From positions 576,001 through 640,000 of the forward strand of contig CAWBWI010000003.1 of assembly GCA_963792585.1 (NCBI GenBank): a DNA stretch of 64,000 nucleotides. The letters run 5' to 3'. Positions 23,422-47,674 of this stretch are shown here, in pieces. A model generated the notes under the pieces. The model worked only from the letters and a program-made list of their open reading frames with translations, did no database searches and was not told the DNA's origin. The first letter of the stretch is position 1. Every line of letters starts with the position of its first letter. This DNA is from Candidatus Eiseniibacteriota bacterium. GTDB taxonomy: Bacteria; Eisenbacteria; RBG-16-71-46; CAIMUX01; VGJL01. A program made the translations under genes and the position numbers.

Positions 23422-23486
23422 ACTCGTCCGAATCCCCAGGCCATGCCCCCTCTTTTCCTCTCTGCTGGGCGGATTATTCTAGACTC

Positions 23487-29238: not shown

Positions 29239-29511
29239 CTACGGCCGCTTGAGCGTCGCGTCGTGGTCGCCGATCACGCGGAGATAGAGCGTGTCCTCGT
29301 GGATCTGGAACGTGAGCCGGTATTTCATCGTCACGGTCGCTTCCCAGATGTCGAGGGTTCCCTGGATCCGCTTCGCCCGCAGGCTCGGATGGAAGGGCTT
29401 CCCGCCTTCCTTGGCGGCGAGGAGGCGGATCGCCTTGTCAGCGCGGGGCTGCACTTCTTTTGGGAGTGAGTGGTAGCAGACCGCGAAGGTCTCGGAGAAG
29501 ACGACCCTCAT
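29239..29511 (-). CDS. RelE/ParE-family toxin
   Basis: HPSLRAKRIQGTLDIWEATVTMKYRLTF..LRVIGDHD; ATGA overlap with the antitoxin. Confidence 0.85.
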   Translation of the reverse strand: MRVVFSETFAVCYHSLPKEVQPRADKAIRLLAAKEGGKPFHPSLRAKRIQGTLDIWEATVTMKYRLTFQIHEDTLYLRVIGDHDATLKRP

Positions 29512-29801
29512 TGCTTTCGAGATGGCCGCTTCTTGAGGGCCAGGATGGCAGCGTCGGCGGATTCCGCTTCGAGCGTGCGCCCCGCCCGGAAGTCGGCGTC
29601 GGTTTTCGTCTCGAGCGCCCGCCAGCGGGGGCTCCAGAACCACGCTTGCTCTGGGTCGATTTCCGCAACGGCGGTGATGAGGATCCCCTGAGGAGTGGCC
29701 TCGAACGAGACGTATTGCCCCTCTTCCACGGGATAGGCCTTTCGAACGTCCTCCGGGATCGTGACCTGGAACTTCCGGCGGATCCGGGCTTTGGTGGCCA
29801 T
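29508..29801 (-). CDS. AbrB/MazE-family antitoxin
   Basis: FQVTIPEDVRK..EEGQYV; EQAWFWSPRW. Confidence 0.85.
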   Translation of the reverse strand: MATKARIRRKFQVTIPEDVRKAYPVEEGQYVSFEATPQGILITAVAEIDPEQAWFWSPRWRALETKTDADFRAGRTLEAESADAAILALKKRPSRKQ

Positions 29802-29857
29802 TTCGGGCTCCTTGAGGTGGGTTGGCATGCGGTTGAGAGTTAGAGAATCGTACTGTC

Positions 29858-31211: not shown

Positions 31212-31260
31212 TTGACAGGATGGACAGGTGCATGGCATATTCCTGACAGGAGGATGTCAG
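31212..31260 (+). promoter_or_regulatory. Promoter (TTGACA...TGnCATATT) plus palindromic operator CTGACA-N6-TGTCAG
   Basis: TTGACA at 31212-17, -10-like at 31236-41, palindrome 31243-31260 overlapping the AGGAGG RBS. Confidence 0.7.
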
Positions 31261-31262
31261 CA

Positions 31263-32597
31263 ATGCGGATCGTCCTTTACCAACCACCCACCGAAGCGAC
31301 TCGGGCTTACCTCGACGCAACGGGGCGAGAGCAGACTTGGCTACCTCATGGGCTGCTTTGCGTCGCTGGAGTCTTGGACGATCGTCTGTGGGAGATCTGC
31401 CTGATCGATGGGCGTCTTCAGCCTAATGGGGCATTGGACGATCTTCACATCCGCTTGCAGGGTGCCGACGTGTTGGCCTGCTCCGTCATGACAGGGCATG
31501 CGATCACCTGGGCACTGAGAGCTTCTGGCCTAGCCAAGGAGTCCGGCATCTCGACCATCTGGGGAGGACCACACCCCACACTCTTCCCGATCCAGACTCT
31601 AAGCCACCCGCTCGTGGATTACATAGTCGGGTCGGGACGAGGAGAAGAGACGTTCGGTCAATGGGCCCGTGCTTTCGCTTCGGGCGAGGCAGTCGAAGGC
31701 ATCCCAGGTCTCGGGTACAAGCATGACAGCACCCCTATCCTAACACCTAGGCCAAACACCCCTTCACGGCCGCGAGACGACTTCCCCCCGCCTCGGCTCG
31801 ATCTCCTGGCCGACTTCAGTCCTTACCTAATGGACGACCCCGCCATTAGCCCAATGGTCACGAATCACGTAACATCCCTAGGGTGTCCATATGCCTGCAC
31901 GTTCTGCTCTGAGCCAACACTGTCAGGACGCAATTGGTTCGCGTGGTCGGCTACTAGATCATTCCAGGAGGTTCAGCGGCTCGTAGCCGCCAGTGGAGCG
32001 ACGGGGATCAAGCTTCACGATGCTCTGTTCTTCGTCGACATGCGCCGGGGCCTGGAATTTGCACGACGGGTCACCGCACTCAATATCAGGTGGGCTGCCA
32101 CCATGCACCCGGTCACTCTCTCGAAGATTGACCGGGGCACGCTCTCCGATCTCCGCCGCAGCGGCTTATCGCGTTTGATGGTGGGATTAGAGTCTGGTAA
32201 CCAGCAGGTAGTGGATCTGGTGGGCAAACGGTTCAGCGTCCGCGCCATTCCGACCATGGCGAGCAAGCTCCGGGATGCGGACATTATCGGAATGTTCAGC
32301 ATGGTGGTCGGCTTTCCCACCGCCGACCCGAGCGAGTACTCCGACACCATCCGGAGCGCTCACGAGATTCACCGGATTTGGGACCGCCATCAGGTCAAGA
32401 TCCACTACGCCAGTCCTTGGCCTGGTACTACAATGTGGGAATCTGCTCTCACAGTGCCCGGCTTCACCCCCCCCGCTGACCTCCTCGGATGGGCTAGCTA
32501 CGACTACTACCTTGCCCAAATGGTATTCCATGACAGGTCCTGGACAACTGCAATCGACGCTATCAACCGTGCTTACTGTCCTTACTACCATGCGTGA
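31263..32597 (+). CDS. B12-binding-domain radical SAM enzyme
   Basis: PHGLLCVAG, WGGPHPT, GEET, TSLGCPYACTFC, GLESGNQ, VGFP, PWPGT. Confidence 0.9.
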   Translation: MRIVLYQPPTEATRAYLDATGREQTWLPHGLLCVAGVLDDRLWEICLIDGRLQPNGALDDLHIRLQGADVLACSVMTGHAITWALRASGLAKESGISTIWGGPHPTLFPIQTLSHPLVDYIVGSGRGEETFGQWARAFASGEAVEGIPGLGYKHDSTPILTPRPNTPSRPRDDFPPPRLDLLADFSPYLMDDPAISPMVTNHVTSLGCPYACTFCSEPTLSGRNWFAWSATRSFQEVQRLVAASGATGIKLHDALFFVDMRRGLEFARRVTALNIRWAATMHPVTLSKIDRGTLSDLRRSGLSRLMVGLESGNQQVVDLVGKRFSVRAIPTMASKLRDADIIGMFSMVVGFPTADPSEYSDTIRSAHEIHRIWDRHQVKIHYASPWPGTTMWESALTVPGFTPPADLLGWASYDYYLAQMVFHDRSWTTAIDAINRAYCPYYHA

Positions 32598-32607
32598 GGA
32601 GCGCCCC

Positions 32608-33720
32608 ATGAATGCGACCCATGCACCCCTATCTGACATCCTTCTACGCGCATCCGTTAGTTCCCGATGCAACTTCAACTGCAGTTACTGCCCGAAGGAT
32701 GCTACGGCTTCGGGAGGGATGGAGAACTACGCCCCAGATCATCTCGCCGGAAACGCTTTGTCTCCTAACGGCTGCACCGAAGCTCTCCAGCACATCCGCA
32801 ATTGTCTCGGTGTAAGAACAGTCAGCTTCACGGGTGGCGAACCAACACTCAACCGTTCCCTTCCTGACCTGTTGGTATCAGCTCGCGCGCTATTCGATCG
32901 TGTTGAGATCACAACTAACGGGTCCGACCACGACGACTCCATGGCCACGCGGTTCGCGCGAGTGCCACTAGACCTCGTCAAGATTAGTCTCGATGCTACG
33001 GACCCTACCTCATTCGCCGTGATCACCGGCGTCAACAACCCTGCGGTCTTCCAGGGGGTGATTGAGACGGTACGGACGTTGGCAGCTCGCGGGGTACCGA
33101 TGGCGCTTAATGCCGTCGTGATGCGCAGCACTCTAGCCAGTCTTCGCAAACTGATCGCGTTCGCTCGGATGGTGCCCTGTCCCATCCATCTCCTCGACTA
33201 CGTCTTCTATCCCTCCAAGCGAGACCACTGGGAGACTGAGTTCGTCCCCATGGAATTCCTCGCGAATGTCTTCACCGAGGAGTACGGTCCCCCTAAGACA
33301 GTCACCCGATACGGATGCACATTTTACACCTACAACTTAGAAGACATCTACATCCGCTTCAAGGATTCCATGACGGCGACAACTCGCGCTCCGGCTTGTA
33401 GCCGCTGTATGGAGTACTGCCAAGAAGGCCCCTACGGCCTAAAGCTAAGCGTCGAAGGCTGGGTCACTGCTTGCCCATCAATCGATCCGAGAAAGGGGGT
33501 CGCCCTGCCAGCGGGCTTGGACAGCAACGACGCTGCGGATCGCCTCGCGACGCTCGTTCCAATGTTCACCAATACAGAAGTAGACACGCGCTCATTCGCG
33601 CACTTTCTTCGCAGGTGGGATCTACATCCTGCGGTCACGAGAGATGAGGTTCGGCGGACTGTCAGGTCTTGTGGACCTGTGACACAGCGCACCACCAAGC
33701 GTTCCGCTGGATGGTCATGA
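32608..33720 (+). CDS. MoaA-like radical SAM enzyme
   Basis: LRASVSSRCNFNCSYC, FTGGEPT, ITTNG, KISLD, C-terminal CSRC..CQEG..C. Confidence 0.85.
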   Translation: MNATHAPLSDILLRASVSSRCNFNCSYCPKDATASGGMENYAPDHLAGNALSPNGCTEALQHIRNCLGVRTVSFTGGEPTLNRSLPDLLVSARALFDRVEITTNGSDHDDSMATRFARVPLDLVKISLDATDPTSFAVITGVNNPAVFQGVIETVRTLAARGVPMALNAVVMRSTLASLRKLIAFARMVPCPIHLLDYVFYPSKRDHWETEFVPMEFLANVFTEEYGPPKTVTRYGCTFYTYNLEDIYIRFKDSMTATTRAPACSRCMEYCQEGPYGLKLSVEGWVTACPSIDPRKGVALPAGLDSNDAADRLATLVPMFTNTEVDTRSFAHFLRRWDLHPAVTRDEVRRTVRSCGPVTQRTTKRSAGWS

Positions 33721-35120
33721 CCTCACGTCGGACAATGGAGACGCACGGTATGTTCATAGTCAACCCAACACCCGACAAGCACGAAGAGGAGCTCCTCGAT
33801 CTGGCTGCTCCAATCAGATTCGATCCATACTTTACATTTGGGCGTGGGCCAGCGGTGATGGGGAGGGTTGTCGACCTTAGAGCCTCTCCGGACGGGGCGC
33901 ATCTCGTCCTACGCTCGCCGGACGGCGACCGACGCTTCTTAATCCGGTTCCCCGATACGCCGGGAGTCGCCGAGGTACGACCAGGAGACCACATCGCACT
34001 CGTAGTCGAATCTACCTCCATAACCGCGTTCGCGATACTCAGTCGAGCGGAACGTGCCACCCCGGACGCTGCGGATTGGGGCTCTCCAGAGAACGAGACC
34101 ACCCGCTTGCGACAGCGTGAGGTCGACTTGTTGGTCCGGCCTTCCGCCCGCCGCATGGTCGAACAACGCAGCGCGATTCTCTTCGGAATTCGCCAACACC
34201 TACAGCAACTGGGTTTCATTGAACTTGAGCTCCCAGTCTTGAAGCGGCATCCAGACGTGGCTCCAGCGCAGCACTTTGAGGTCGTCGACAACAACGGACG
34301 GCACCTCTATCTTCGCACCACGTTCCCGCCATTCGAGCGCATGTTCGTGTCCCTCGACCGTGCATATACGATCGGACCCAACTTTCGCAACGGGGACTGG
34401 AGCCATAAGAACATACCGGAGTTCACGATGCTGTGCTTGATGATGCGCGGGGCTACGTACCTTGACGCGCACCGTCTTGTCCGCGCGATGATGGCGACGG
34501 TTGTTGCCGACGTAATGGGCACGAGCATTGTTACTTTCCGTGGCCAGCAGTTCAATCTCCGCTCCTGGGAGGAGGTCAGTCTCGTGCAGGAGGTTCGCGC
34601 TCGGCTTGGCGTAGAACTGGCTGAACTGGACGACGACAAAGAGATGACGCGGTTCGCGTCCCGTCATGGGATCACATCTCCAGCTAGCTCGCCAGGTGGA
34701 CATTTGATGCGGGCCGCTCTCTTCGATCGGCTCTTCGAGGCACTGATCGTTCCAGCCTTTCCTGGCCCCACATTCTTCACTGACGTGCCCTGGTATCTGG
34801 CTGGCCCCGCCGAACCGCACCCAAGCATGCCAGGTATCAAGCTCCGTGGAGAGGGTTATGTGGCCGGCATGGAACTCACCAATGCGAAGAACATCCTGAC
34901 CGATCTCGACGCGCTTCGCAGGTGGCACGAGCGCATCGCTCAGGAGAAGCGTAGTGCGGGCTTTAAAGAGGAGTACGCGGCGGTTGATAAGGATTACCTG
35001 CGATCTATTGAGTACGGCCTCCATCCCGGCGCACTGTCCTCGATCGGCATCGATCGTCTCGTCATGTTGGCTCTCGGTGTTGACCATATCTCGGAGGCCG
35101 TCATGTACCCCGTCCCTTGA
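33717..35120 (+). CDS. Class II lysyl-tRNA-synthetase-like ligase (divergent paralogue)
   Basis: Motif 1 GFIELELPVL, motif 2 FRNG..PEFTML, motif 3 YGL..IGIDRLVM; degenerate OB fold. Confidence 0.85.
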   Translation: MTSRRTMETHGMFIVNPTPDKHEEELLDLAAPIRFDPYFTFGRGPAVMGRVVDLRASPDGAHLVLRSPDGDRRFLIRFPDTPGVAEVRPGDHIALVVESTSITAFAILSRAERATPDAADWGSPENETTRLRQREVDLLVRPSARRMVEQRSAILFGIRQHLQQLGFIELELPVLKRHPDVAPAQHFEVVDNNGRHLYLRTTFPPFERMFVSLDRAYTIGPNFRNGDWSHKNIPEFTMLCLMMRGATYLDAHRLVRAMMATVVADVMGTSIVTFRGQQFNLRSWEEVSLVQEVRARLGVELAELDDDKEMTRFASRHGITSPASSPGGHLMRAALFDRLFEALIVPAFPGPTFFTDVPWYLAGPAEPHPSMPGIKLRGEGYVAGMELTNAKNILTDLDALRRWHERIAQEKRSAGFKEEYAAVDKDYLRSIEYGLHPGALSSIGIDRLVMLALGVDHISEAVMYPVP

Positions 35121-35155
35121 GCGGCAGCTCACCATTAACGTAAGAAGGAGTACCT

Positions 35156-36121
35156 ATGCTCACACTTCTCCCTAAGCCCCTAACTCCAGGCGACACGGTC
35201 GGAATAGTCTCACCGTCCGGACCTGTTCGTGACCAGCAGCAATTCGAGCGGGGTCTAGCCGTGCTCAGAGAGCGTGGGTACCGGCTGAAGATCGCACCTC
35301 ACGCCCTAGGGCGCACATTCCATATGTCGGCCGCTGGATCAGACAAAGCCGCCGACCTCATTGCGATGTTCACTGATCCTGAAGTGACGGCGATCTTCCC
35401 TAGTGTAGGTGGCCACACGGCCAACCAGGTTCTCGAGCAATTGGATTACCATTCAATCGCACTGCACCCGAAGCTTCTACTCGGCTTCAGTGACAGTTCC
35501 GTTCTGCTGAATGCCATCTACGCGCGCACCGGACTTGTGTCGATTCATGACAACGCTGATGTCATGTTTGGTCTGGGCCGGTTCGGGGACGAGCGGTTGG
35601 CGACCCGAGGCGAATACACGGCCCGCTACCTCTTTGCGGCCCTTGAGACGCCCTTACCTCTCGGACGGATCGAAGCACTAACGGAGTGGCAGTGTTTGCG
35701 ACCTGGGCGCGGGACTGGCCTCGCCCTCGGAGGCAACCTGTCCACGCTGCGTTCAATTATCGGATCTCCGTTTGAGCCGGACTGGGCCTCGGCCATTCTC
35801 TTCCTGGAGGACAAGGCCGAGCCTCACGTGTGGGATCAGCAGCTCGGCCATTTACGGTTGACGGGCATACTGGCCAAGATAGCGGGACTCGTCGTCGGTA
35901 AGGTGGAGAACAAGCCGGAACAGTTCTACAAGGAGAACTATCAAACCCTCGCCGACATTGTGCTTCGCCACTGCGAAGGCTATGGGTACCCGGTCCTATA
36001 TGGCGCGGATTTCGGCCATGACGTTGAGAACTTCGCGATCCCCATAGGCGTTCGGGCGCAGGTGGATGGCGCTGACAAGTCCGTGACCTTCCTGGGCGCC
36101 GCAACGACCAACCGGATGTAG
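35156..36121 (+). CDS. S66 peptidase (LD-carboxypeptidase / MccF-like)
   Basis: PGDTVGIVSPS, GFSD (Ser), GGNL, LFLED (Glu), DFGH (His). Confidence 0.9.
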   Translation: MLTLLPKPLTPGDTVGIVSPSGPVRDQQQFERGLAVLRERGYRLKIAPHALGRTFHMSAAGSDKAADLIAMFTDPEVTAIFPSVGGHTANQVLEQLDYHSIALHPKLLLGFSDSSVLLNAIYARTGLVSIHDNADVMFGLGRFGDERLATRGEYTARYLFAALETPLPLGRIEALTEWQCLRPGRGTGLALGGNLSTLRSIIGSPFEPDWASAILFLEDKAEPHVWDQQLGHLRLTGILAKIAGLVVGKVENKPEQFYKENYQTLADIVLRHCEGYGYPVLYGADFGHDVENFAIPIGVRAQVDGADKSVTFLGAATTNRM

Positions 36122-36125
36122 GGGC

Positions 36126-37352
36126 ATGACACCGCAGCGTCTCGTCATCGGTTTGCCGTCTTTCAATGAAGCCGCCACGATCGGAGCGGTTACCCGCGTA
36201 CTTGACGACGCTGCTTGTAGCCTTACCGGTCTGTGTTGTCTGCTCTGTAATGCGGATAGCGCCTCCGAGGATGGCACGGCCGACGTGTTCCTACGTACCC
36301 CGACAAGGACGCCGAAAGTGTCGCTCGTAACTGGATCCGCCACCGAGAGGGGCAAGGGTCGGAACGTGTTGGCTATTCTCGAACGCGCATCTGGCCTTGA
36401 CGCCGCTTGCGTCTTCTACGATACAGATCTGGTCAGCATCACGCCAGAATGGCTCAAGACGTATGTCGCCGCAATCATCCGCGGATACGACTTCGTCACA
36501 CCGTCGTATCGGCGCGCAAAGCACGCAGCCTCAGTGACAAACACGACACTATACCCCCTCGTTTGCGGCATTCTAGGGGCCGACATTCGGCAGCCGATCG
36601 GGGGCGATTTCGGCCTGTCCAGCGACTTCATCGCTCACGTTCTGAAGAGTCGTAGCGGTCTCGATCCCGCGCTGGACCTTTCCGGCTTCGGTATCGACGC
36701 CTTTCTGACTTGCAGCGCTCTTGAGCGTGACGTGCGTATCTGCGCGGTTCACCTCGGGACTAAGGTACATCGCCCGAAGAATCCCGCTCATGACCTTCTG
36801 CACATCTTTGCCGAAGAGGTGTTGACTACCTTCGCATTCATTCTGCGATACGCCGAGGGCCCGACGGCGCAAAGAACAATTCCCGTCCTTGGGCAGGCGG
36901 GGGAGGGGGACCTTCCTCACCCAGGCGTGGACTGCGGAGAGCTGAGCCTGGCAGCAACGCGTCTTTACGCAGCGCAGGAAAGCGAGATCACTGCATGGCT
37001 CCCTGTTGATGCCTTTCCAGACGTACATAACACACTTCGCACGTCCTTGCGGCCGCGTCTGTCCAATGGCCTATGGTGCGACATTCTTGTAGAAGCGCTG
37101 GTCGCGTTTGCCCGCGCTAGAGCAGTCGAATCCGTCGAGACGCGGCGAGTGAGCTATCGGAGACTTGGATCCAACTTGTATCCTCTCTATCTTGCCAGGT
37201 TGGTCGATCTCGTGGAGGAGACCAGAGACCTGCCCGATGACCTTGCAGAGGACGTGTTTCTATCTTATCCCACAGCGCTCCAACAGAGAAGCGGCCACCT
37301 TATTCGTAAACTGACGCAATGCCTATCCACAGCGCCCACGCTGGTCCGATAA
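36126..37352 (+). CDS. GT-A glycosyltransferase, glucosyl/mannosylglycerate-synthase-like
   Basis: PSFNEAATI, GKG, DTD, IRQPIGGDFGLS, FGID, LGTKVH. Confidence 0.85.
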   Translation: MTPQRLVIGLPSFNEAATIGAVTRVLDDAACSLTGLCCLLCNADSASEDGTADVFLRTPTRTPKVSLVTGSATERGKGRNVLAILERASGLDAACVFYDTDLVSITPEWLKTYVAAIIRGYDFVTPSYRRAKHAASVTNTTLYPLVCGILGADIRQPIGGDFGLSSDFIAHVLKSRSGLDPALDLSGFGIDAFLTCSALERDVRICAVHLGTKVHRPKNPAHDLLHIFAEEVLTTFAFILRYAEGPTAQRTIPVLGQAGEGDLPHPGVDCGELSLAATRLYAAQESEITAWLPVDAFPDVHNTLRTSLRPRLSNGLWCDILVEALVAFARARAVESVETRRVSYRRLGSNLYPLYLARLVDLVEETRDLPDDLAEDVFLSYPTALQQRSGHLIRKLTQCLSTAPTLVR

Positions 37353-37456
37353 CGCAGCAGGAGGAGTCGAATGTCCGTGGATCGGATACCCAACCAAACG
37401 CGATATGCAGTCAGAGGCGCTCCTTCCATGGAGCGGTCTGTGTCGCGAGGGAGGGA

Positions 37457-38764
37457 ATGACGATGATTCTTGTAATCGGCGCTTCTGGCTTCCTGGGTAG
37501 CCGCCTCATTGCGGCACTGTCGCGGGAAGGGCCGGCCGTCGGTACATGCTGCAATGACAGGCTTCGCGACATGCTGGACTGCGATCTGCGCGTCGATTCG
37601 GCGCTGGACCGAGTGTTGTCCATGGCCGCGGGCAAGGTCGTTTACTTCTGCGCCAACGTTGGTGGCCGCCAGACTGCTGCAAGTGCTCCGGCCGACGCCT
37701 ATCGTGTGAACGCCTACGCACCGAGTCGCATCGCTGCAGTGGCAGCTCAGTTCGTTTACTTCTCGACGGACTACGTGTTCGACCGGCCCGGCATGGCTAC
37801 GGAAGAATCGGCGCCGAGCCCTGATTCGATGTACGCAAGGTCCAAGGCGGACGGCGAGCGTGCCGTTCTTGCGGCTTCCGATACCGTACTGGTAGTCAGG
37901 ATATCGGGTCTGTTCGATGCGCGGGGCACACGAAACGTGCAGTTTGCAGACGCAACAGCTGTTCGGCCTCCCGACAACCGAATGAGCAACCCGACCTTCG
38001 TTCCCGATTTGCTCTCGGTCGTCCGCCTATGGCAGTTGGCCGGCATACGTGGTATTCGTCATGCCTGCGGTCCAGATACGCTTTCCGAATATGAGTTCCA
38101 TCAACTCGCAAGCTTGCGCTGGGGTTACGACGTCCATCCATCACTCTCCTCATCGCCCCGATTCGGAACGCGCTTAGTGTCCTCGTCGCCCGGTGCCATT
38201 CGAAGTCCTTCAGAAGTGTTTATTGATGAACGCTCGCAGGCCTCGTGTGAGATGTGCGGTGACCAGGTGCTCGTTGCTGACACCGTGGGAGTCGTTCTTT
38301 CCGGAAGGAGATGGAAGGAGACCGACCCTCGCTTCTGGTTGGACGTCAATTCCGATCCGAGCGCGACCCTTCGTACCTTGGGCCCAGAGCGAGTGGCCGC
38401 TGCCTACTGCCCAAACCCTCGCTTCTGGCGCATGCTTCGTACGCGACCTGCGGCGGTCAGGATGGTCCTGGCAAACAACGGACCCTGGGAGTCGTTTTTC
38501 CTATGGCAGACTAGGTATGGCCTCTCACGCATATTCGAGCTTGTCATAAACTCCGAGCGAGACAAGATAGTTAAGCCGCAGCGGGCGTTTCGGGCCGGAA
38601 TCGACGCATTTGCAGGTGGACGGTCAATCCATCTGATCGATGACCATTGCGACGTCGTGACCGCCGCAACGAACTGGGGATGGATCGCCAACCAGACGAC
38701 TCTCGTTTCTACGTGGCCCATCGAGGAGTACAGCTACCCGGGAATGGAGGCTATATGGGCATAA
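37457..38764 (+). CDS. RmlD-like NDP-sugar reductase (SDR) fused to a HAD-like domain
   Basis: GASGFLG, STDYVFD, YARSK; C-terminal DTVGV, LANN, KP, IDD. Confidence 0.8.
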   Translation: MTMILVIGASGFLGSRLIAALSREGPAVGTCCNDRLRDMLDCDLRVDSALDRVLSMAAGKVVYFCANVGGRQTAASAPADAYRVNAYAPSRIAAVAAQFVYFSTDYVFDRPGMATEESAPSPDSMYARSKADGERAVLAASDTVLVVRISGLFDARGTRNVQFADATAVRPPDNRMSNPTFVPDLLSVVRLWQLAGIRGIRHACGPDTLSEYEFHQLASLRWGYDVHPSLSSSPRFGTRLVSSSPGAIRSPSEVFIDERSQASCEMCGDQVLVADTVGVVLSGRRWKETDPRFWLDVNSDPSATLRTLGPERVAAAYCPNPRFWRMLRTRPAAVRMVLANNGPWESFFLWQTRYGLSRIFELVINSERDKIVKPQRAFRAGIDAFAGGRSIHLIDDHCDVVTAATNWGWIANQTTLVSTWPIEEYSYPGMEAIWA

Positions 38765-39762
38765 CGAACGTGAGAACCGGTACGCGCGCCATTCCCCTGT
38801 CACCGATCAGCCGGCAGATACACACCGTCAACGGGCCGTTCGCCCCCCGAACGACGCTGATCAAGCCATCCCATTTCCCGAGTCCTTATGATCGCTTCCG
38901 GACCGGTGAGTATCTATTCATGACTCGGATCGCCGGATACCAGATTGGCGGATCCGCGCGGTACAGAGAAGGTAAAAATCGTGTCCTCGTAACTCTATAC
39001 GCACCGCGTCAGCAGTCTAGTCCGGGAAACCTCGGTCAGGTCCAGCAGGAAGTCGCCCGACGTTTGGGCCTGCATGACGACCTGAGCGGCTACGAACGCA
39101 TCTGGGCAGGAGACCCCATTCTACGTTCCCTACCGTCGGAAATGATGGGCGCCCGGCCGTCTAGTCCATTTGCGCTCTATGAGTTTCTGGTGATTTGCAC
39201 GCTGCTGCAGAACACGGTGGTACGTCGGACAGTTCAGATGGCCAATGCACTCGCGGAATACCTCGGGGGTCTCTTCCAGTTCCCGGATGGCACGACGCTC
39301 CGTGGGTTCTGGGAACCTGGTGCGTTGGTGAGTGTCGGCGAGTCGCGCCTTCGTGAGTTGCGTCTCGGATACCGGGCGAAGACCTTAGTCCGCTTCTCCG
39401 AGCAGTTCTCTAACCAACCAACACTCGAAGCGGACCTGCTTGGCCTTGCGGGACATCCTGATAGTCTTCGCGACGCCATCGATGACATATATGGTGTTGG
39501 ACCGGCCTCCGCAAACTACGTTCTTTTCGAGTGGTTCAAGTGCACCGGGGCGCTGTTTACACTGTCGCCTTGGGAAGCCAGGATCTTGTCTCGCCTGCTG
39601 TTCAAACGGGATGATGTCGTTGCGTCCCGAACGATGGCGTTCTGCCAGCGGCGGTGGGCACCGCACGCGATGCTTGCCGTTCACGCGGTCTTTGAGACGG
39701 CGTTTTGGGCGCGCGCACGAGGAGAGGGACCGGAGTGGCTCAATGAACTCATTCGGCTCTAA
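38755..39762 (+). CDS. HhH-GPD DNA-glycosylase-like protein (AlkA/OGG1 fold)
   Basis: LYEFLVICTLLQNT, LRLGYRAK, HhH IYGVGPASA, W.P.A.LA. Confidence 0.75.
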   Translation: MGITNVRTGTRAIPLSPISRQIHTVNGPFAPRTTLIKPSHFPSPYDRFRTGEYLFMTRIAGYQIGGSARYREGKNRVLVTLYAPRQQSSPGNLGQVQQEVARRLGLHDDLSGYERIWAGDPILRSLPSEMMGARPSSPFALYEFLVICTLLQNTVVRRTVQMANALAEYLGGLFQFPDGTTLRGFWEPGALVSVGESRLRELRLGYRAKTLVRFSEQFSNQPTLEADLLGLAGHPDSLRDAIDDIYGVGPASANYVLFEWFKCTGALFTLSPWEARILSRLLFKRDDVVASRTMAFCQRRWAPHAMLAVHAVFETAFWARARGEGPEWLNELIRL

Positions 39763-40579
39763 CAACCTTCGGCGGATGCGGACGGCAGTGCGCAACGCGC
39801 TCGCAGCTGGAGGAGCGGAAGAACTCGAGGAGGAAGCTGATGCAATCATGGAGCATATCGCACGTATGGGATTCTTGGCGGAAGAACCGATGAGTGCACT
39901 CTTGAGTTCCTTGGCAGCCGGGGTATCTCCGTACCTGCTAACCGGCAAGTATCGTATTCGGGGGACAGATCATGTGATCCGTGTGGCACCGGGTGTGATG
40001 CCACCAGGTGGCGACACGTCGCATGTCACCGATATCCTCCGCGAATTCGTACGCAGCTCATCTCCGAGGCTGTTGGCGGACATCGGGTGCGGGACCGGAG
40101 TCTTGGGCATTTCGGGTTTGATCGCCGATCAGGGCTGTCTAGCTGTCCTAGTGGACTCAGACTTCACGGCCTGCCGCGCCGCTCACAGTAACCTTAGGTA
40201 CCTTGGGCTCTTGAGCCGTGCGCACGTCGTTTGTGCCACGGGGTTGGAGTCCCTTCGCTCGAACGTACTGGACTTACTGGTCGCCAATTTGCCATTCGTG
40301 CCCACTGCCTTGGTATCCTCCTTGCCGGCACGCTTCGGCCGATACGTCCCTTCTCACGCCGTGGATGGAGGCCCCGATGGACTGGCCCATATACGGCACC
40401 TACTGTCCCAGATCTGTAGGGTGGTTCGACCGGGCGGTAGACTGATCCTCCAAATCGGCACCGGTCAGAAGGGGGCTGTCGCCAACATGCTGGGCAGCTC
40501 GTGGCTGCAAGACCCGGCTTCGACGATCCAGCACGACACCTTGGTGGTGGCACACCGTGTAGGGAATCAGTTCTCATAA
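39743..40579 (+). CDS. PrmC/HemK-like SAM-dependent methyltransferase
   Basis: YLLTG, PGVMPP, DIGCGTG, ANLPFVP, AVDGGPDGL. Confidence 0.8.
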   Translation: MNSFGSNNLRRMRTAVRNALAAGGAEELEEEADAIMEHIARMGFLAEEPMSALLSSLAAGVSPYLLTGKYRIRGTDHVIRVAPGVMPPGGDTSHVTDILREFVRSSSPRLLADIGCGTGVLGISGLIADQGCLAVLVDSDFTACRAAHSNLRYLGLLSRAHVVCATGLESLRSNVLDLLVANLPFVPTALVSSLPARFGRYVPSHAVDGGPDGLAHIRHLLSQICRVVRPGGRLILQIGTGQKGAVANMLGSSWLQDPASTIQHDTLVVAHRVGNQFS

Positions 40580-40583
40580 TTCA

Positions 40584-41657
40584 ATGCAATCACACATGCA
40601 ATCAGGAGCTTCAGCAGCACTTCCCTTCGGCACACGTGCGAACGCCGCACGTCTTTCGGCCATTGTCTTGATTTTGTACGCCCGCAACAACGTTACCGGC
40701 GAGGAGCTGGCATCTAAGCTCGGCGTGACGCTTCGCACGGTTTATCGCGACGTAGCTCGCCTCGAGGGACTCGGGTTCCCCATAGCAGCCAGTCCAGGCC
40801 CTGGCGGTGGCTTCACTCTGGACTTCATGTCAGCAGAAGAAGGAGGCATCGCCACTGAACGAGACCTTCTCGATGTCTTCGCACGGACCGGGCTGACGGC
40901 TCCCGATAATGCGACCCTTGACGCAGTAATCGGAATGGCCGGCGATGCTATTACTGCGGCCGATTTGCAGAGTCTTCGCAATGCTGCAGATCGTATCCTC
41001 TTCGATCCAGAAGAGTGGTACAGGAGAACGAGACCTCCGGCGGACTTCGGGGTCGTTAGGCACGCCGTGCTGAACGATGTACGTCTTGACGTGGCATTCA
41101 CTGAGCGCACAGGGCCGGGACTTATCGAAGACGTGTTTGATCCCTACGGGCTTATTTGGAAGGGGGGGGTGTGGTACATCTACGGCTACAGTCATCGGGA
41201 ACGGGGGATGCGCCGGATTCGCGTTGAGCGGCTTGTTCGAGCACAGATGAGCGCTGAGCACTTTCGGCGGCCCAAGGACTTCGACTTGTTGCAGCAATGG
41301 CAAGAAGAGCTTGAGTCCTTCGGCAAAGGAACTACGCGCGTTGTCATTCGCATTGAGCAGTCCGTCGTGCCAGAATTCGAGCACTTCAATTGGAAGCGCG
41401 AGAACAAGATCATCAGGAAGCGGGACCATTGGCTCGTGGAAATGCGGGTCGACAATGTCGCATGGCTGGTGCCGCTCGTTCTATCATATGCCGGCGACGT
41501 CAGAATCCTCAGGCCTCCGGCACTCTGCGATCTCGTCCTCGCAGCTGCCCGGGCGGTTCTTGCCGCCCATTCTGGGGAACACGCCGGACCAAGCGGGAGC
41601 CATACCGACGATTCGCGTAGCCGCGCTGCCATTCATCGCCGTAGTCACCAGGAATGA
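40584..41657 (+). CDS. WYL-domain transcriptional regulator (HTH_11-WYL-WCX)
   Basis: ELASKLGVTLRTVYRDV, GPGGGF, DPYGLIWKGGVWYIYG, RVER, PKDFDL. Confidence 0.9.
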   Translation: MQSHMQSGASAALPFGTRANAARLSAIVLILYARNNVTGEELASKLGVTLRTVYRDVARLEGLGFPIAASPGPGGGFTLDFMSAEEGGIATERDLLDVFARTGLTAPDNATLDAVIGMAGDAITAADLQSLRNAADRILFDPEEWYRRTRPPADFGVVRHAVLNDVRLDVAFTERTGPGLIEDVFDPYGLIWKGGVWYIYGYSHRERGMRRIRVERLVRAQMSAEHFRRPKDFDLLQQWQEELESFGKGTTRVVIRIEQSVVPEFEHFNWKRENKIIRKRDHWLVEMRVDNVAWLVPLVLSYAGDVRILRPPALCDLVLAAARAVLAAHSGEHAGPSGSHTDDSRSRAAIHRRSHQE

Positions 41658-41723
41658 CCGGCTGCGCCGATCTCCCCATCGTTCGGGAAGGACTTTGTCA
41701 GCAACCTGCTAGAGGAATTGCAT

Positions 41724-42287
41724 ATGGTTACAGGCGAGTTCCATTCAGGCGAGCGCCTTTCGGTACTCCTCGCTGAGTACCAACGTGTGCGAGACGAGAT
41801 ATTGCACCACAAGTCGACACAACAGACGGTCATGAACTTCATCATCCTGCTCGCCGCGGCCGAGGTCGCGATGTTTTCTCAGATTGTGGAAAGAGGCTTC
41901 GACGCGCGGTATACGACGGTGCTATTGCTGCTGCCGTTGCCCTTCGCCCTGCTAGCGGTGTACCACTCTGCGTACACAGCGCGGATTCACGTACTCGCCG
42001 AGTACCTCGACGGTGACCTCCGGCATAAGCTCGAGCACATCGTAGGCGATGGGGCGCTGAGGGCCAAGTCGTACTATGCCACACGTAACGTTCTCGGCTT
42101 AAGGCACGCTCGATCGGACGGCAAAGCTACCTATCTCGCACTCTTGGGGCTGAAGAGTCTACCGCAGATCGTGCCTCTGGCCGCTTGCGTGACTCTGGGT
42201 GTGGAAGGTCTCTCTTGGTGGCAGTGGGCCTGGTTGTGTGGCGACGTTGCTCTACTGCTTGTGTCATCTCTGGGTCAACATGACTGA
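41724..42287 (+). CDS. Hypothetical 4-TM membrane protein
   Basis: EYQRVRDEI coiled N-terminus followed by hydrophobic helices. Confidence 0.7.
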   Translation: MVTGEFHSGERLSVLLAEYQRVRDEILHHKSTQQTVMNFIILLAAAEVAMFSQIVERGFDARYTTVLLLLPLPFALLAVYHSAYTARIHVLAEYLDGDLRHKLEHIVGDGALRAKSYYATRNVLGLRHARSDGKATYLALLGLKSLPQIVPLAACVTLGVEGLSWWQWAWLCGDVALLLVSSLGQHD

Positions 42288-42675: not shown

Positions 42676-43377
42676 TCACGCATCAGTATCGTCATCACCG
42701 GGCAGGAGTGCTACAAACCGCGCAATGAGCGCGATGGAGAGTATCACCCCTGTCACTGCCTCACTCGCAACGACTAGCCGCATTGTCCCAGTCGCAGCGA
42801 TATCTCCGAAGCCGACCGTAGTGATTGTAGCGACGCTAAAGTAAAGTGCATCAGCGGGCGTATGCACTGATCCGATCAAAGAGTCGCGGAACGCCCAATA
42901 CAAGAGTCCGTAGAGAAGCGTGATCTCCAGAAAACAGCCGACACCTAGGATCAGGCGCCGTGTGATTGAATACTGCTGGAGATTCTCCCGCGTCCCGTGG
43001 ACACGCCGAAAGAGAAGGAGATTCCCATAGACCTGGATCACCTCGACCATCCGACAGACCACCAGACCGAGTACAACTCGGGAAGTCACTCCAAGGGAGT
43101 AGGACAGTATCTCTAAGACCCAACAGCCGACCACGTAAGCGTCAGTGAACCAGACCTGAGCCACCCGCGATCTGCGGCCCAAGAATCGTTGAATGTGCGT
43201 AGCTAGCGACAGTTGTGCAAGGAACCAAAATGCACTTGTGAGGAGAGCTTCGAGTGGAGAGAGTGATCGATCGGCACGACGCACGACTAGCCTCCTGCCT
43301 ATGCGCGAGACACGAGATGACCAAACGGCGCAACAGCTGCCCGGCCATTCTAGCGTCGTACCAAGCAAGCTGGCCAC
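42676..43377 (-). CDS. Potassium-channel (Ion_trans_2) domain membrane protein
   Basis: DALYFSVATITTVGFGDI filter motif. Confidence 0.85.
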   Translation of the reverse strand: MASLLGTTLEWPGSCCAVWSSRVSRIGRRLVVRRADRSLSPLEALLTSAFWFLAQLSLATHIQRFLGRRSRVAQVWFTDAYVVGCWVLEILSYSLGVTSRVVLGLVVCRMVEVIQVYGNLLLFRRVHGTRENLQQYSITRRLILGVGCFLEITLLYGLLYWAFRDSLIGSVHTPADALYFSVATITTVGFGDIAATGTMRLVVASEAVTGVILSIALIARFVALLPGDDDTDA

Positions 43378-43588
43378 CAGGTAGTCCCTTGAATGGCCGG
43401 TGCAGCATTTGCCGGCACGTTGCGGGAGCGTTCCTGGCGGTCTCCCGAGTGGCGTCGCTACGGCGAGGATGCACGACCGAAGGGCGTTGCCCAGCGTGAG
43501 GACGAGGCTTCGCTCCGGGCTCGCGCCCTCCGTCCCACTATCGCGCAGCCCCCGGCCCAGCTACGACGCGCCGGTTCTCCTGATGAAT

Positions 43589-43910
43589 GGGTAACGTCAC
43601 TTGTTTTGTGTCAGCAGGAATGGGGTAGCTGCCCCCTCTCTCCTATTCGCATAGTTGAAAACGGCATACAGAATCCGTTCGATGCTCATTCGATCGCTGA
43701 ATGCTCCCATCGGACGGGTCCTGCGCCGCACCTCCCGGAATCGACGCTCGATTGCATTCGTCGTCCGGCTCATCCGCTGCCAGTCCGGCTCCTTCAGCTC
43801 GTAGTGGTTCAGCAACTCGTCAAGGTCCTTCATCAGGCATCGCACGGCCGCATGGTAGAGCTTGTCCCACTTCGCGCCGAATCGCATCGCCGCCTGGTCG
43901 GCCCTTTCTA
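43589..43910 (-). mobile_element. IS256-family remnant (transposase C-terminus + one terminal IR)
   Basis: RTTNAIERRFREVRRRTRPMGAF; end sequence GGTAACGTCACTTGTTTTGTGT. Confidence 0.8.
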
Positions 43911-43935
43911 GGATCATGGATCACCTGGACTAACG

Positions 43936-44695: not shown

Positions 44696-45382
44696 ATGTC
44701 CGAGAATGGACTCATCCGCACGATCGAGATCAAGGACCGCACCGGCCGAGTGATCGGCACGAAGGAAGTCGTCACGTACCAGGGTCTTCTCTCCAAGGCC
44801 CACGATGAAGGCCTCCAGCGTGTCGCGACCCGCCTCGTCCAGGTTCCCTCGGACGAGAACGGCCGCACCGCGATCGCGAAGGCGCTCGTGGAGACGAAGA
44901 AGGGTCGGTTCGAGGGGATTGGCGATGCCAACCCCGAGAATGTGAACTCCTTCATCGTCCCGCACCTGATCCGCATGGCCGAGACCCGCGCGAAGGCCCG
45001 CGCCCTCCGCGATGCCGTCAATGTCGGCGTCATCTCCTTCGAGGAACTGGACGGCGACGGGGTTCTTCCCAACGGATCGGACCTCGGGTCGGGTGCTTCC
45101 GAGCCGGCTCGCAGCTCGCCCGGCAACGGCCGCACGAGTCCGCGTCCGGCTTCAGGGAATGGCAGTGGAAACGGCAACGGGGCCCTCATGACCGAGGCCC
45201 AGCGCCGCTACCTGTTCCGCATTCTGGCGGGGCAAGGCATCGACAACGAAGCTGCCCATGACTACCTGAAGGGCCACTTCGGGGTCCCTGCTCTCGCTCA
45301 GGTCACGAAGGCGCAGGCCACGGCTGCGATCGACGAACTCCTGAAAGGTGAGGAGGTCCCGCATGGATCCCCTCAGCGTTAG
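44696..45382 (+). CDS. Conserved hypothetical protein, putative ssDNA-annealing protein
   Basis: AGGAGG RBS; YQGLL..AH, RMAETRAKARALRDA; coupled to a PD-(D/E)XK nuclease. Confidence 0.7.
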   Translation: MSENGLIRTIEIKDRTGRVIGTKEVVTYQGLLSKAHDEGLQRVATRLVQVPSDENGRTAIAKALVETKKGRFEGIGDANPENVNSFIVPHLIRMAETRAKARALRDAVNVGVISFEELDGDGVLPNGSDLGSGASEPARSSPGNGRTSPRPASGNGSGNGNGALMTEAQRRYLFRILAGQGIDNEAAHDYLKGHFGVPALAQVTKAQATAAIDELLKGEEVPHGSPQR

Positions 45383-46124
45383 CCGGGTCCAGACCTACCT
45401 CGGTTGCCCGCTCCAGTACCGCTTCCGCTACATCGACAAGATCCCGCCCCCGTGGCGTCCGGCCGCCCTCGTCTTCGGCTCCACAGTGCATGCGACCATC
45501 GAGTGGTTCCACCGAGAACGCCTCGCCGGTCGCAACCCTACGCCCGAGGCAACGGCTGCCATCTTCAACGCCGACTGGTTCGCGGAGAACCTCGAGCCCG
45601 TGGTCTTTCCCGAGAAGGAGTCCAAGGACTCCCTTGCGGAGAAAGGCCGCGCCCTCGTCACCCTCTACGTGGAACAGATCGGCGAGACGTTGCCCAAGCT
45701 CATCGAGGACCGCTTCGAGATCGACTTGGTCGATCCCGAGACCGGGGAAGTGCTCGATGTGCGCCTCCGCGGGATCATCGATCTCGTTGAGGCCGACGGC
45801 ACGCTCGTGGAGCTCAAGACCGCGGCCCGGACCTTCGATACGGGCACGCTCGAACGGCACCTCCAGCTCTCCACGTATGCCTTGGTCCGCTTCCTCGCGA
45901 CGGGAGAAGTCCCACCGCTTCGGATCGACGCGCTCCTCAAGACCAAGGTCCCACGCCTCGAGCGCCTCCCGGCAAGCCGTACGGTCGAGGATCTCGCCTG
46001 GACCGTTCGGTTGATCGAGCGCGTGGCCCTGGCCATCCGCAGCGGCTGCTTCTACCCGAATCCCTCCTGGCGGTGTGGGGAGTGCGAGTACTTCGCACAC
46101 TGCCAGTCGTGGCGGGGGGAGTAG
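45363..46124 (+). CDS. PD-(D/E)XK nuclease (RecB/Cas4-like, Fe-S cysteines)
   Basis: YLGCP, FGSTVH, LRGIIDL, VELKT, QLSTY, CGECEYFAHC. Confidence 0.9.
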   Translation: MDPLSVSRVQTYLGCPLQYRFRYIDKIPPPWRPAALVFGSTVHATIEWFHRERLAGRNPTPEATAAIFNADWFAENLEPVVFPEKESKDSLAEKGRALVTLYVEQIGETLPKLIEDRFEIDLVDPETGEVLDVRLRGIIDLVEADGTLVELKTAARTFDTGTLERHLQLSTYALVRFLATGEVPPLRIDALLKTKVPRLERLPASRTVEDLAWTVRLIERVALAIRSGCFYPNPSWRCGECEYFAHCQSWRGE

Positions 46125-46143
46125 CCCGCTCCTCTCCAGCACC

Positions 46144-46171
46144 GGGGCTCTTCATCACGAGGAGCCCCTTT
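46144..46171 (+). terminator. Terminator-like hairpin
   Basis: GGGGCTCTTC-ATCAC-GAGGAGCCCC-TTT. Confidence 0.5.
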
Positions 46172-46230
46172 CCCTTCCCACCGGACACCTCGGACAAGGG
46201 CGCGTGCAACGTGCCCGTCATGGAGGAACC

Positions 46231-46884
46231 ATGCTTGAAACGGATGTTCCCCAGGGCATCACGCCCCAGGTCCACTGCCGTGAGGACTGCCGATCCTGGC
46301 CGGTGACGCGCCTCCTCGGCGCCGTGCTCTGCTCCGACCACGCGGCCGAGGCGCTCCTCACGAAGTTCGGTTCGCTCGACCTCATCGCCGATGCCGGATC
46401 CGCCGACCTCGTGTCGGTGCCGGGAATCGGGCGGCGTCGGGCCACGCAGGTCTTCGCAGCCTTCGAGCTGGCGCGCCGCGCTACCATCCCCCGGGCGGAG
46501 ACGAAGGTCGAGATCCGCTCGGCCGAGGATGTCGTCCGCCTCGTTGCCCCGGCCCTCCAGGACCTGAAGCGTGAGATGTTCGTTGTCCTGCTCCTGAACA
46601 CCCGGCACCGGCTCCTGAAGATGGAGACGGTGAGCCTGGGGAGTCTCAGCGCGTCCATCGTCCACCCGCGCGAAGTGTTCCGCTCCGCGATCCAGGCGGC
46701 CGCGGCCGCGATGATCCTCGCGCACAACCATCCCTCCGGGGACCCGCAACCGTCCGACGACGACATCGAGATCACCCTACGACTTCGGGACGCCGGCCAG
46801 ACGATCGGCATCAATGTCGTGGACCACGTCGTCATCGGTGGTAACGGAACCCACTACTCATTCCAGGAGAACGGGGGTTTCTGA
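46231..46884 (+). CDS. radC: RadC/JAB-domain protein
   Basis: VPGIG HhH, VHPREVF, LAHNHPSGD..PS..D, DHVVIG. Confidence 0.92.
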   Translation: MLETDVPQGITPQVHCREDCRSWPVTRLLGAVLCSDHAAEALLTKFGSLDLIADAGSADLVSVPGIGRRRATQVFAAFELARRATIPRAETKVEIRSAEDVVRLVAPALQDLKREMFVVLLLNTRHRLLKMETVSLGSLSASIVHPREVFRSAIQAAAAAMILAHNHPSGDPQPSDDDIEITLRLRDAGQTIGINVVDHVVIGGNGTHYSFQENGGF

Positions 46885-46910
46885 CCCTGTCTCTAGAGAG
46901 GAGTCCTGTC

Positions 46911-47639
46911 ATGTCCGGCATGCTTGTCCTGCACCGCGGCGGCTGGGAGGCGACGCCCGCCGACCTCGCCGCCGTTCCCGTGCCTGAAGAGACCGACTCG
47001 TACGTGCCGGTGCCCCATGGCCGCTTCGTCGAGGAGGTCGAACTCCACGTCCCACGCTTCGGCCTCACGATCACCGATGCCCGCTACGCGCTCGCTCACG
47101 ATGGAATGCAAATGTTTGGGGTCCTGACCTGCACGAACGGTCAGAACCACGCGGACTACGGGCTCGCCATCGGTCTCCGGAACTCCTACGACCGTTCACT
47201 GTCCGTGGGTCTCGTGGCGGGAAGCCGGATCTTCTGCTGCGACAACCTCGCCTTCTCGGGTGAGGTGGAGACCAACCGCAAGCACACGGTGAACGTGTTC
47301 CGGGATCTGCCCGATCTCATCTACCGCATGCTCTCGCAGGTTTCGTCGATGCGGAGCCGGATCCACGCGGAGATCGCGGCGATGAAGGAGCGGGAGCTGT
47401 CACCCGAGACGGCCGACCATCTCATGGTCGAGGCGGTTCGCAGGAACGTCCTTCCTGCTTCGAACCTTCCCAAGGTGATCGAGGCATGGGAGAAGCCGGC
47501 GCACGAGGCCTTCGCGCCCCGGACCGCCTGGTCGCTCTTCAACGCCTTCACGGAAACACAAAAGTCACGGAGTCCGCGTGTCCAGATGGACTCCGGGCTC
47601 CGGCTCGCCAGCACCTTCCGGAGCGCGCTCGCGCTCTGA
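46911..47639 (+). CDS. DUF932-family protein
   Basis: YVPVPH, MFG, GLRNSYDRS, FCCDNLAF, TAWSLFNAFTE. Confidence 0.85.
   Translation: MSGMLVLHRGGWEATPADLAAVPVPEETDSYVPVPHGRFVEEVELHVPRFGLTITDARYALAHDGMQMFGVLTCTNGQNHADYGLAIGLRNSYDRSLSVGLVAGSRIFCCDNLAFSGEVETNRKHTVNVFRDLPDLIYRMLSQVSSMRSRIHAEIAAMKERELSPETADHLMVEAVRRNVLPASNLPKVIEAWEKPAHEAFAPRTAWSLFNAFTETQKSRSPRVQMDSGLRLASTFRSALAL
47609..47639 (+). repeat. 31-bp direct repeat (DUF932 3' end), copy 1
   Basis: CAGCACCTTCCGGAGCGCGCTCGCGCTCTGA identical to 49370-49400. Confidence 0.9.
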
Positions 47640-47645
47640 TCCTCT

Positions 47646-47674
47646 AGGACCACCCCACACAGGGTGGTCCTTTT
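47646..47674 (+). terminator. Intrinsic terminator
   Basis: AGGACCACCC-N6-GGGTGGTCCT-TTT. Confidence 0.7.

Follow-up and report, generated by a model that had tools for sequence, protein, structure and literature searches.

A mobile radical SAM gene cluster family with a putative role in making acylated nucleoside or nucleotide analogues with modified sugars

The operon at 31263..42287 of a 64,000-nucleotide stretch of a Candidatus Eiseniibacteriota assembly (GCA_963792585.1, contig CAWBWI010000003.1, positions 576,001 to 640,000; hereafter the window) belongs to a gene cluster family that is real, co-evolving, and apparently undescribed, and that is of a known general kind. The conserved unit of this family is a pair of radical S-adenosylmethionine (SAM) genes together with a short-chain dehydrogenase/reductase (SDR) gene, not the full set of ten genes found here. 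Sequence comparisons suggest that the operon probably encodes a mobile, stress-inducible pathway that yields a nucleoside or nucleotide analogue bearing an acyl group and a modified sugar, in which a helix-hairpin-helix (HhH) protein and an S66 peptidase would protect or release; the compound would most likely be aimed at DNA.

As originally noted, the ten open reading frames (ORFs) are co-oriented, all on the plus strand, and several overlap or abut: four junctions overlap (by 8, 4, 10, and 20 nt), two are gaps of 4 nt, and the rest are gaps of 35, 66, and 104 nt. Pfam and NCBIfam agree with the families originally assigned, the phosphatase half of g6 through its orthologues and g7 through a family profile, and no gene of the ten passes the NCBIfam cut-off for any named function. 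The genes are as follows:

31263..32597, plus strand: g1, radical SAM protein with B12-binding domain, 444 aa, core gene (Pfam, family profile)
32590..33720, plus strand: g2, core gene for a MoaA-like radical SAM protein of about 370-376 aa carrying a four-cysteine twitch motif (NCBIfam, family profile)
33717..35120, plus strand: g3, paralogue of class II lysyl-tRNA synthetase (LysRS) with a remodelled pocket (tRNA-synt_2; database start 33750)
35156..36121, plus strand: g4, S66 serine peptidase (S66 N and C domains; triad S112/E218/H288 intact)
36126..37352, plus strand: g5, GT-A glycosyltransferase of the mannosylglycerate/glucosyl-3-phosphoglycerate synthase type (MGS_GT weak, E 2.4e-5, under cut-off)
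37457..38764, plus strand: g6, RmlD-like SDR fused to a HAD phosphatase (GxxGxxG and YxxxK intact)
38755..39762, plus strand: g7, Ogg/AlkA-fold HhH protein without the canonical catalytic Asp and Lys (family profile)
39743..40579, plus strand: g8, PrmC/HemK-like N-methyltransferase paralogue with NLPF motif (alternative start maybe 39776)
40584..41657, plus strand: g9, HTH_11-WYL-WCX transcription regulator (Pfam)
41724..42287, plus strand: g10, membrane protein of no known family, outside the conserved cluster

These genes recur together in distant genomes, bearing out the co-conservation on which the original prediction depended. A search with an alignment of g3 recovered four metagenome loci (L002-L005): L004 (56% GC) holds nine of the ten operon genes in a different order; L003 (34% GC) holds seven, g1-g6 and g8, and then reaches the contig end; L002 has g3-g4-g5, and L005 is too short to judge. 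The same alignment returned no matches as bait in a genome scan. An alignment of g7 retrieved 68 genome loci, nine of which contain both radical SAM genes; these nine clusters derive from Bacteroidia, Patescibacteria-type bins, Streptomyces, Actinomadura, Anaerolineales, ANME-1, and Bacillota. Among 72,556 plasmid records, g1 matches nine and the g2-family protein matches the same nine; six of these were inspected, and one decaying copy (L080), interrupted by an integrase gene, was excluded from counts. Another decaying copy, L021, is cut by insertion sequences. The resulting set comprises 16 related loci besides the window, from Bacteroidota, Patescibacteria, Chloroflexota, Bacillota, Actinomycetota, Cyanobacteria, and ANME-1; several are truncated at contig edges, and absences from them are accordingly soft.

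Across 17 loci, g1 and g2 co-diverge: their pairwise identities are correlated (Spearman 0.87, a value reached by 0 of 999 permutations, though inflated by close kin), and their trees are almost congruent. An SDR of RmlD, epimerase, or classical type is present in 15 of the 16 related loci, a phosphatase in nine (HAD in four, PHP in four, histidine phosphatase in one), and S66 in 12. A class II synthetase paralogue occurs in eleven loci, every time directly beside S66; two others (L009, L017) instead carry AMP-binding and condensation domains of the nonribosomal peptide synthetase (NRPS) type, lack both the synthetase paralogue and S66, and contain ABC/MFS exporters. WYL, PrmC-like, and glycerate-type glycosyltransferase genes are present in 7/16, 5/16, and 2/16 loci, respectively. 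Because the HhH alignment served as bait, HhH counts in the g7-found loci are circular; an HhH gene is nonetheless present in five of the seven loci retrieved by other means. HIT, NUDIX, APH, and glyoxalase genes lie beside several cluster copies. HisG (ATP phosphoribosyltransferase) is also encoded inside one cluster, behind the candidate operator palindrome described below (L021:3432-4106), and near the Nocardia farcinica cluster, with dGTPase and GT4 (L078:16671-17229).

The core itself takes two forms: type I (window, L004, L009, L026, L030), with an RmlD-HAD fusion in 5/5 clusters, and type II, with separate SDRs. In L026, a decaying copy, the fusion gene is split over two ORFs. Pfam gives no match for the HAD half of the window's g6; this half aligns with HAD-matching orthologues and keeps motifs I-IV. 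Acylation modules are independent of core type, as the g3-S66-glycosyltransferase-methyltransferase set accompanies type I in the window and L004 and type II in L003; the NRPS-type domains likewise occur with both core types. The original prediction had treated all ten genes as one unit; g1-g9 do recur, but g10 has no match in the 79 other loci, and its Atlas neighbours are unnamed. The unconserved g10 and the variable gene order are what might be expected if the operon were a chance mosaic of island cargo. However, the nine genes shared with L004 and the seven shared with L003, the congruent radical SAM trees, and the uniformly low GC refute this for g1-g9 and make it extremely improbable overall.

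The operon is a low-GC acquisition that has moved horizontally. Its genes have 57-59% GC, as compared with 65% for the genome, and the surrounding stretch of the contig (C3) is also low in GC. The host carries its own LysRS, MoaA, PrmC-like, and S66 genes at other sites, so the corresponding operon genes are extra paralogues. No match to g3 was found in 40 relatives, and none to the g1 family profile in 205 other genomes of the phylum, with the best eight candidates per genome scored and many genomes incomplete.

Among PDB structures, the g1 family profile is nearest to AprD4 (the best match), 9ccb, OxsB (5e-18), and TokK; its best NCBIfam match is HpnJ, and it reaches no named family cut-off. 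Because these are its nearest relatives, methylation and sugar rearrangement are indistinguishable as activities of g1. The g2 family profile is nearest to MoaA (1.8e-44), followed by 8wm2, PqqE, SkfB, BlsE, and viperins. PDB entry 8wm2, labelled only "Fe-S radical SAM", has the cysteine spacing of g2; it is possibly AbmM. The hallmarks of MoaA are a three-cysteine auxiliary site, the CTRARL arginines, and a C-terminal GG. In the g2 family, the four twitch cysteines are invariant and the C-terminal GG is absent in 17/17 members, the equivalent of MoaA R17 is kept in 16/16 with the N-terminus included, and an insert aligns in place of the R266 position; type II members mostly keep the basic phosphate-binding positions of MoaA. 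Identity of g2 with MoaA was rejected (TIGR02666, 92-93 bits against a cut-off of 284; four cysteines, no GG, and a host MoaA elsewhere). The parallel with viperins, also originally drawn, extends to a radical SAM enzyme that acts on nucleotides and is located in defence islands; however, g2 has a second cysteine cluster motif and acts in a multi-enzyme cluster, and it is not a prokaryotic viperin (NF038283, 48.6 bits against a cut-off of 180).

The HpnJ and AprD4 matches of g1, together with the RmlD-like SDR, the GpgS-type glycosyltransferase, and the HAD—all sugar-phosphate enzymes—are also consistent with a small-molecule pathway on a non-nucleoside scaffold, such as a nucleoside diphosphate-sugar, a cyclitol, or a glycosylglycerate derivative. 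This appears unlikely, as the glycosyltransferase is found in just two of the 16 related clusters, the HhH, WYL, HIT, and NUDIX neighbours indicate nucleic acids, and type II g2 proteins retain the phosphate-binding positions. A nucleoside small-molecule pathway is favoured because folds are swapped in fixed slots (reductase, phosphatase, acyl ligase, HhH) and the nearest characterised relatives act on nucleotides. Among solved structures, the g2 relatives MoaA, BlsE, and viperins use nucleotides or nucleosides, and AprD4 and OxsB, near g1, modify sugars.

Fold and pocket assignments for g3, g4, and g7 are made at the level of sequence alignment. g3 retains the ATP residues R262, F274, E421, and R480, as do all 11 family members aligned; numbering and residue roles are those of E. 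coli LysU. At the LysRS pocket positions G216, E240, E278, Y280, F426, and E428 it has D, P, C, M, K, and I, and E240P, E278C, and F426K occur in 11/11 family members, with loss of both the side-chain and the alpha-amino contacts to lysine. Because the pocket is remodelled and these alpha-amino binding residues are lost, g3 is not a lysine ligase or a resistance copy, resistance being one of two roles originally listed for synthetase paralogues. It was likewise rejected as a lysyl-tRNA synthetase (198 bits against a cut-off of 468; lysine pocket not kept) and as EpmA (107 against 287 bits; approximately 110 extra N-terminal residues and no EpmB or EF-P neighbours). An N-terminal OB-like remnant is kept. 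The g3 family is small (10 proteins at E<1e-40 among 8000 scored; a handful of 50% clusters); other cluster paralogues mostly retain E240 and E278 and differ at further positions, with the ATP residues constant. Further LysRS paralogue groups (P0013, P0015-P0020) show other remodelled pockets in which E240 and E278 are lost.

Among solved structures, g4 is nearest to MccF (5e-37), and the Ser-Glu-His triad is intact in all cluster S66 proteins aligned. In Patescibacteria-type copies (L008, L010, L011, L015, L019) there are two distinct S66 genes, one on each strand, and each encodes an intact triad. The DxD, glycerate-binding Arg/Thr, QPxGG, GID, and His motifs of g5, whose roles are presumably those of mannosylglycerate synthase (MGS), align with MGS in a weak match (E 0.014) that lies under family cut-offs; the L004 glycosyltransferase passes the GpgS cut-off (309 against 262 bits) and is 24% identical to g5. 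A g3-type pocket co-occurs with a glycerate-type glycosyltransferase, from two subfamilies, in all four loci that are long enough (window, L002-L004), as compared with 0/10 loci with other paralogue types (the paralogue type of L081 being assumed from its likeness to L075). Because the g3-type pocket travels with this glycosyltransferase, our working hypothesis is that the acyl unit is glycerate-like.

By analogy, the logic of the operon appears to be that of the albomycin, agrocin 84, and blasticidin clusters. Albomycin biosynthesis pairs two radical SAM enzymes with a synthetase-like ligase (PMC9092360, PMC8323819). The albomycin (abm) cluster resembles the present family in having two radical SAM enzymes on a nucleoside sugar, an acyl-adding synthetase-like ligase, and a methyltransferase, to which L030 adds an SHMT-like gene; compared by description only, it differs in that AbmF is SerRS-like whereas g3 is LysRS-like, and the window lacks a carbamoyltransferase, kinase, resistance synthetase, and siderophore NRPS. 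The L030 gene, in the Bacillota copy, is an 881-aa SHMT-like/aminotransferase fusion accompanied by a pyridoxal phosphate-dependent decarboxylase within the cluster (L030:3853-9953), recalling threonine-transaldolase chain extension of nucleosides.

Agrocin 84 reportedly bears a hydroxy-acyl group and a sugar. Its cluster (agn, on pAgK84) likewise combines a radical SAM, S66, SDR, methyltransferases, and a class II synthetase-like (AsnA-like) gene; however, it has no B12 radical SAM, HhH, or WYL gene and has a resistance LeuRS. Orthology to AgnA, AgnB2, and AgnC1-C7 was rejected, the likeness reaching no further than the superfamily: AgnC5 is 29% identical to g4, AgnC7 is 20% identical by profile to the g2 family, and AgnA has no BLAST match to g3. 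The blasticidin S cluster shares a twitch radical SAM (BlsE match) and a glycosyltransferase, and its BlsK is a LysRS paralogue serving as acyl transferase; the BlsE score, however, is 32 against a cut-off of 400, and the window lacks an aminotransferase, aminomutase, and ATP-grasp ligase.

For oxetanocin A and albucidin, PMC7074753 and PMC13331322 describe the remodelling of a nucleotide sugar by a B12 radical SAM enzyme, joined in albucidin by a second radical SAM enzyme. The g1 profile matches OxsB as noted above, but membership in this group was rejected, as OxsB has 744 aa against 444 for g1 and the HD hydrolase and albC reductase partners are absent from the window; those systems, in turn, lack an acylation module, S66, HhH, and WYL. 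4'-Thiothymidine, as described in PMC12691670, is a radical-SAM-made analogue that enters DNA. A microcin C system was also rejected: the original likening of S66 to MccF stands as regards the intact triad, but the cluster S66 proteins lack the MccF aromatic loop, and no MccA or MccB family is found among the ten genes. In these comparisons no characterised cluster matched, consistent with the original statement that no named system has this gene set; a literature search likewise found no description of it, within a coverage largely outside subscription journals and supplements, so that a description may exist there or in a cluster database and bear on novelty.

The HhH protein g7 has no Pfam match; its family profile matches Ogg/AlkA structures (3.8e-20 to 4ejy; Atlas 0.97). 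The glycosylase originally predicted is therefore supported as to fold but not as to active site: at the canonical Asp position the family has S, P, or A (Asp in 0/120 aligned), and at the Lys position A or Q. The family counts 347 proteins at E<1e-10 among 4505 candidates. Plasmid clusters encode distant HhH proteins that retain the Asp, and no HhH protein is seen in the Calothrix copy; because distant Asp-bearing proteins are used there, it appears that HhH function rather than lineage is kept. In a quick tree with long branches, cluster-linked copies do not form one clade (6 changes against 14.6 when shuffled), and the tree was not used further. At stand-alone loci L041 and L064 the only partner is S66, and in eight others, mostly Patescibacteria (L034, L047, L050, L055, L059, L061, L068, L069), a 130-aa protein of no family abuts upstream of a stand-alone Asp-less HhH gene. 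This protein also occurs in radical SAM clusters and has no copy in the host genome; it and the HhH protein possibly form a two-gene protection cassette. The stand-alone loci would fit orphan protection cassettes or plain repair genes; g7 itself is a candidate self-protection protein.

A DNA-binding fold without the hydrolytic Asp might also serve macromolecule modification, with the radical SAM enzymes and SDR making a modified base or residue and g7 acting as a DNA transglycosylase or base swapper; alternatively, g3 and g8 might modify tRNA or protein in the fashion of EpmA and PrmC, as the OB-like remnant of g3 and the HemK amide-binding motif retained by g8 (a separate PrmC-like gene lies elsewhere in the host) would allow. 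We regard this as rather unlikely. In two loci g3/g4 are replaced by NRPS-type domains and exporters, the plasmid HhH proteins keep the Asp or, in Calothrix, are missing, and no nuclease partner is present. Viral contig scans and phage tblastn found no relative except for a weak match to a B12 radical SAM of Streptomyces phage SF3. A phage DNA hypermodification cluster was rejected on the grounds of no phage location and no PHROG match for g7. Thus, of the modified nucleotide or DNA base originally proposed, an acylated nucleoside or nucleotide is the best reading, and DNA-base modification is less likely because cluster variants use NRPS domains and exporters.

Transcription of the operon may be controlled from two elements directly upstream of g1:

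31212..31241, plus strand: sigma-70-like promoter candidate TTGACA-18-CATATT with extended TG (10/12 match; weak alone)
31243..31260, no strand: perfect palindrome CTGACA-N6-TGTCAG, candidate WYL operator, over the g1 ribosome-binding site

Promoter-like sites are not enriched (three found, 4.1 expected in shuffles), and promoter and terminator counts are at the level of shuffled sequence. The palindrome directly follows the promoter-like sequence and is the sole exact copy in the 5.4-Mb genome and one of two sites there within one mismatch; cluster promoters contain it in L007 (two exact copies) and in L021 and L077 (one mismatch each), as compared with one site within one mismatch in 838 kb of 60 other loci. 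L077 has no WYL gene in the 23 kb shown. The position of the palindrome over the ribosome-binding site suggests repression, and this candidate operator lends substance to the WYL regulation originally proposed; no published WYL operator with a matching sequence was found in the literature. WYL domains of the g9 architecture sense single-stranded DNA and have roles in damage response and phage defence, according to PMC10693628.

The same source is consistent with WYL, HhH, glyoxalase, S66, and phosphatase genes as a typical stress set, and g7-family genes are mostly stand-alone; the operon might thus be damage-inducible and degrade an outside genotoxin or repair damaged nucleotides, with no synthesis. 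This is quite unlikely given the building enzymes present, which include ligases that use ATP and vary in their pockets, as well as NRPS domains, methyltransferases, and the threonine-transaldolase-like/aminotransferase fusion of L030.

The operon lies in a region rich in mobile and defence-related genes. A Gabija GajA-GajB pair at 6252-9862 (PADLOC E 9e-220 and 1e-179) ends 21 kb upstream. It is followed by a 1260-aa TPR protein whose PIN domain is that of the TPR-GreAB-C-PIN system (15439-19221, minus strand) and by a LexA-like repressor, a large serine recombinase, and two tandem RuvC-like ORFs (19668-26066), an arrangement that resembles the border of an integrative element. A ParE-like toxin and AbrB/MazE-type antitoxin (29239-29828, minus strand) form a small pair nearer the operon than Gabija. 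Directly after the operon come a two-helix potassium-channel-like gene (Ion_trans_2, minus strand) and a Mutator transposase fragment (42676-43917), followed by plasmid or integrative and conjugative element-type leading-region genes (44696-49183: PD-(D/E)XK nuclease, RadC, DUF932, and a Schlafen AlbA_2 protein) and by a C25 peptidase, FlgD-Ig/Por-tail proteins, and an Rhs repeat protein (51602-63998), a set that suggests a host of the FCB group. A repeat search found repeats at chance level only. The defence-rich island originally described is thus partly supported, by a strong Gabija match, TPR-PIN, Schlafen, and the toxin-antitoxin pair, but Gabija itself lies at a distance.

As a special case of the nucleoside-analogue pathway, the same chemistry might serve intracellular anti-phage defence, with the analogue poisoning phage replication or entering DNA and being excised by g7. 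WYL control with an operator placed as a repressor site, the 12 of 16 related clusters without an exporter, the copies in Patescibacteria and ANME-1, the Gabija, TPR-PIN, and Schlafen genes of the same island, and the AbiE pairs that flank L004 on both sides all agree with such a role. However, a scan of 54 flanking proteins, 44 of them from eight related loci, gave clear defence matches only at the window and L004, the AbiE pair being the only one among the 44. The cluster proteins themselves gave weak superfamily matches and no full-length strong match to PADLOC 2023 systems, so that none is a true family member (PDC-M51A ≤31 bits, pVip ≤76 bits). Actinomycete exporters and stand-alone g7 genes beside S66 or a small partner suggest a compound reaching other cells, and ordinary genotoxic-stress genes are also under WYL regulators (PMC10693628). 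The anti-phage system originally predicted thus has circumstantial support, most related loci lack adjacent defence genes, and we consider this version possible but doubtful. Exporters and orphan cassettes point outward, to an antibiotic, and WYL control and exporter-free copies inward.

In the nucleoside-analogue pathway, the WYL regulator would occupy the palindrome that covers the g1 ribosome-binding site, and single-stranded DNA or a similar signal would release or activate it. g2 would abstract hydrogen from a nucleotide sugar, g1 and the SDR would complete the remodelling of this sugar by C-methylation, deoxygenation, epimerisation, or ring contraction, and the HAD would take off phosphate. 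g3 would then adenylate and attach a carboxylic acid lacking an alpha-amino group, with (phospho)glycerate or its glucoside the likeliest candidate; g5 may glycosylate the glyceryl unit and g8 methylate a nitrogen. g4 would cleave the acyl group, releasing or disarming the compound, and g7 would shield producer DNA from the analogue or its lesion.

Several observations weigh against this pathway. The window holds no kinase, base-tailoring enzyme, or ribonucleotide reductase, and no gene fixes a nucleotide substrate; type I g2 proteins, including that of the window, are without basic residues at MoaA positions 71, 163, and 192. A clear exporter is present in only four of 16 related clusters. 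The palindrome occurs within one mismatch in three of eight loci with a visible WYL gene, the other five showing half-sites only (read by eye). In alignment, the aromatic loop that in MccF carries W186 and stacks on adenine (PMC8323819) is absent from g4, which is approximately 16 residues shorter there, and likewise from the other aligned cluster S66 proteins; it is present in AgnC5. The g3-glycosyltransferase association rests on a single g3 clade. Glycosylase activity of g7 is uncertain because the canonical Asp and Lys are missing. Of 27 g7-family loci flanked by 5 kb or more on each side, 21 lack radical SAM genes, so g7 may be an ordinary repair gene.

A broader proposal, which we offer tentatively and at low confidence, is a cross-domain chemical defence: a single-stranded-DNA-sensed, radical-SAM-remodelled analogue would be kept as an acylated pro-compound by the synthetase/S66 pair, with the acyl group varying between clusters (here a non-amino acid, for example glucosylglycerate), and the Asp-less HhH protein would protect the producer's own DNA or destroy analogue-bearing phage DNA.

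What defines the cluster family is an obligate pairing of two uncharacterised radical SAM enzymes. It is spread over no fewer than six phyla of bacteria plus one lineage of archaea; Patescibacteria, in which biosynthetic clusters are seldom reported, are among them. Nucleosides with modified sugars that occur in nature have already proved to be a source of antivirals and antibiotics. If the reading of g3 is true, this LysRS paralogue, having no alpha-amino pocket, would represent a ligase of the synthetase fold that uses a hydroxy acid. Because plasmids of cultured Streptomyces and Calothrix (for example Streptomyces sp. F12 pFRL6 and Calothrix NIES-4101) hold compact copies of the cluster, its product, inducer, and function are directly testable.

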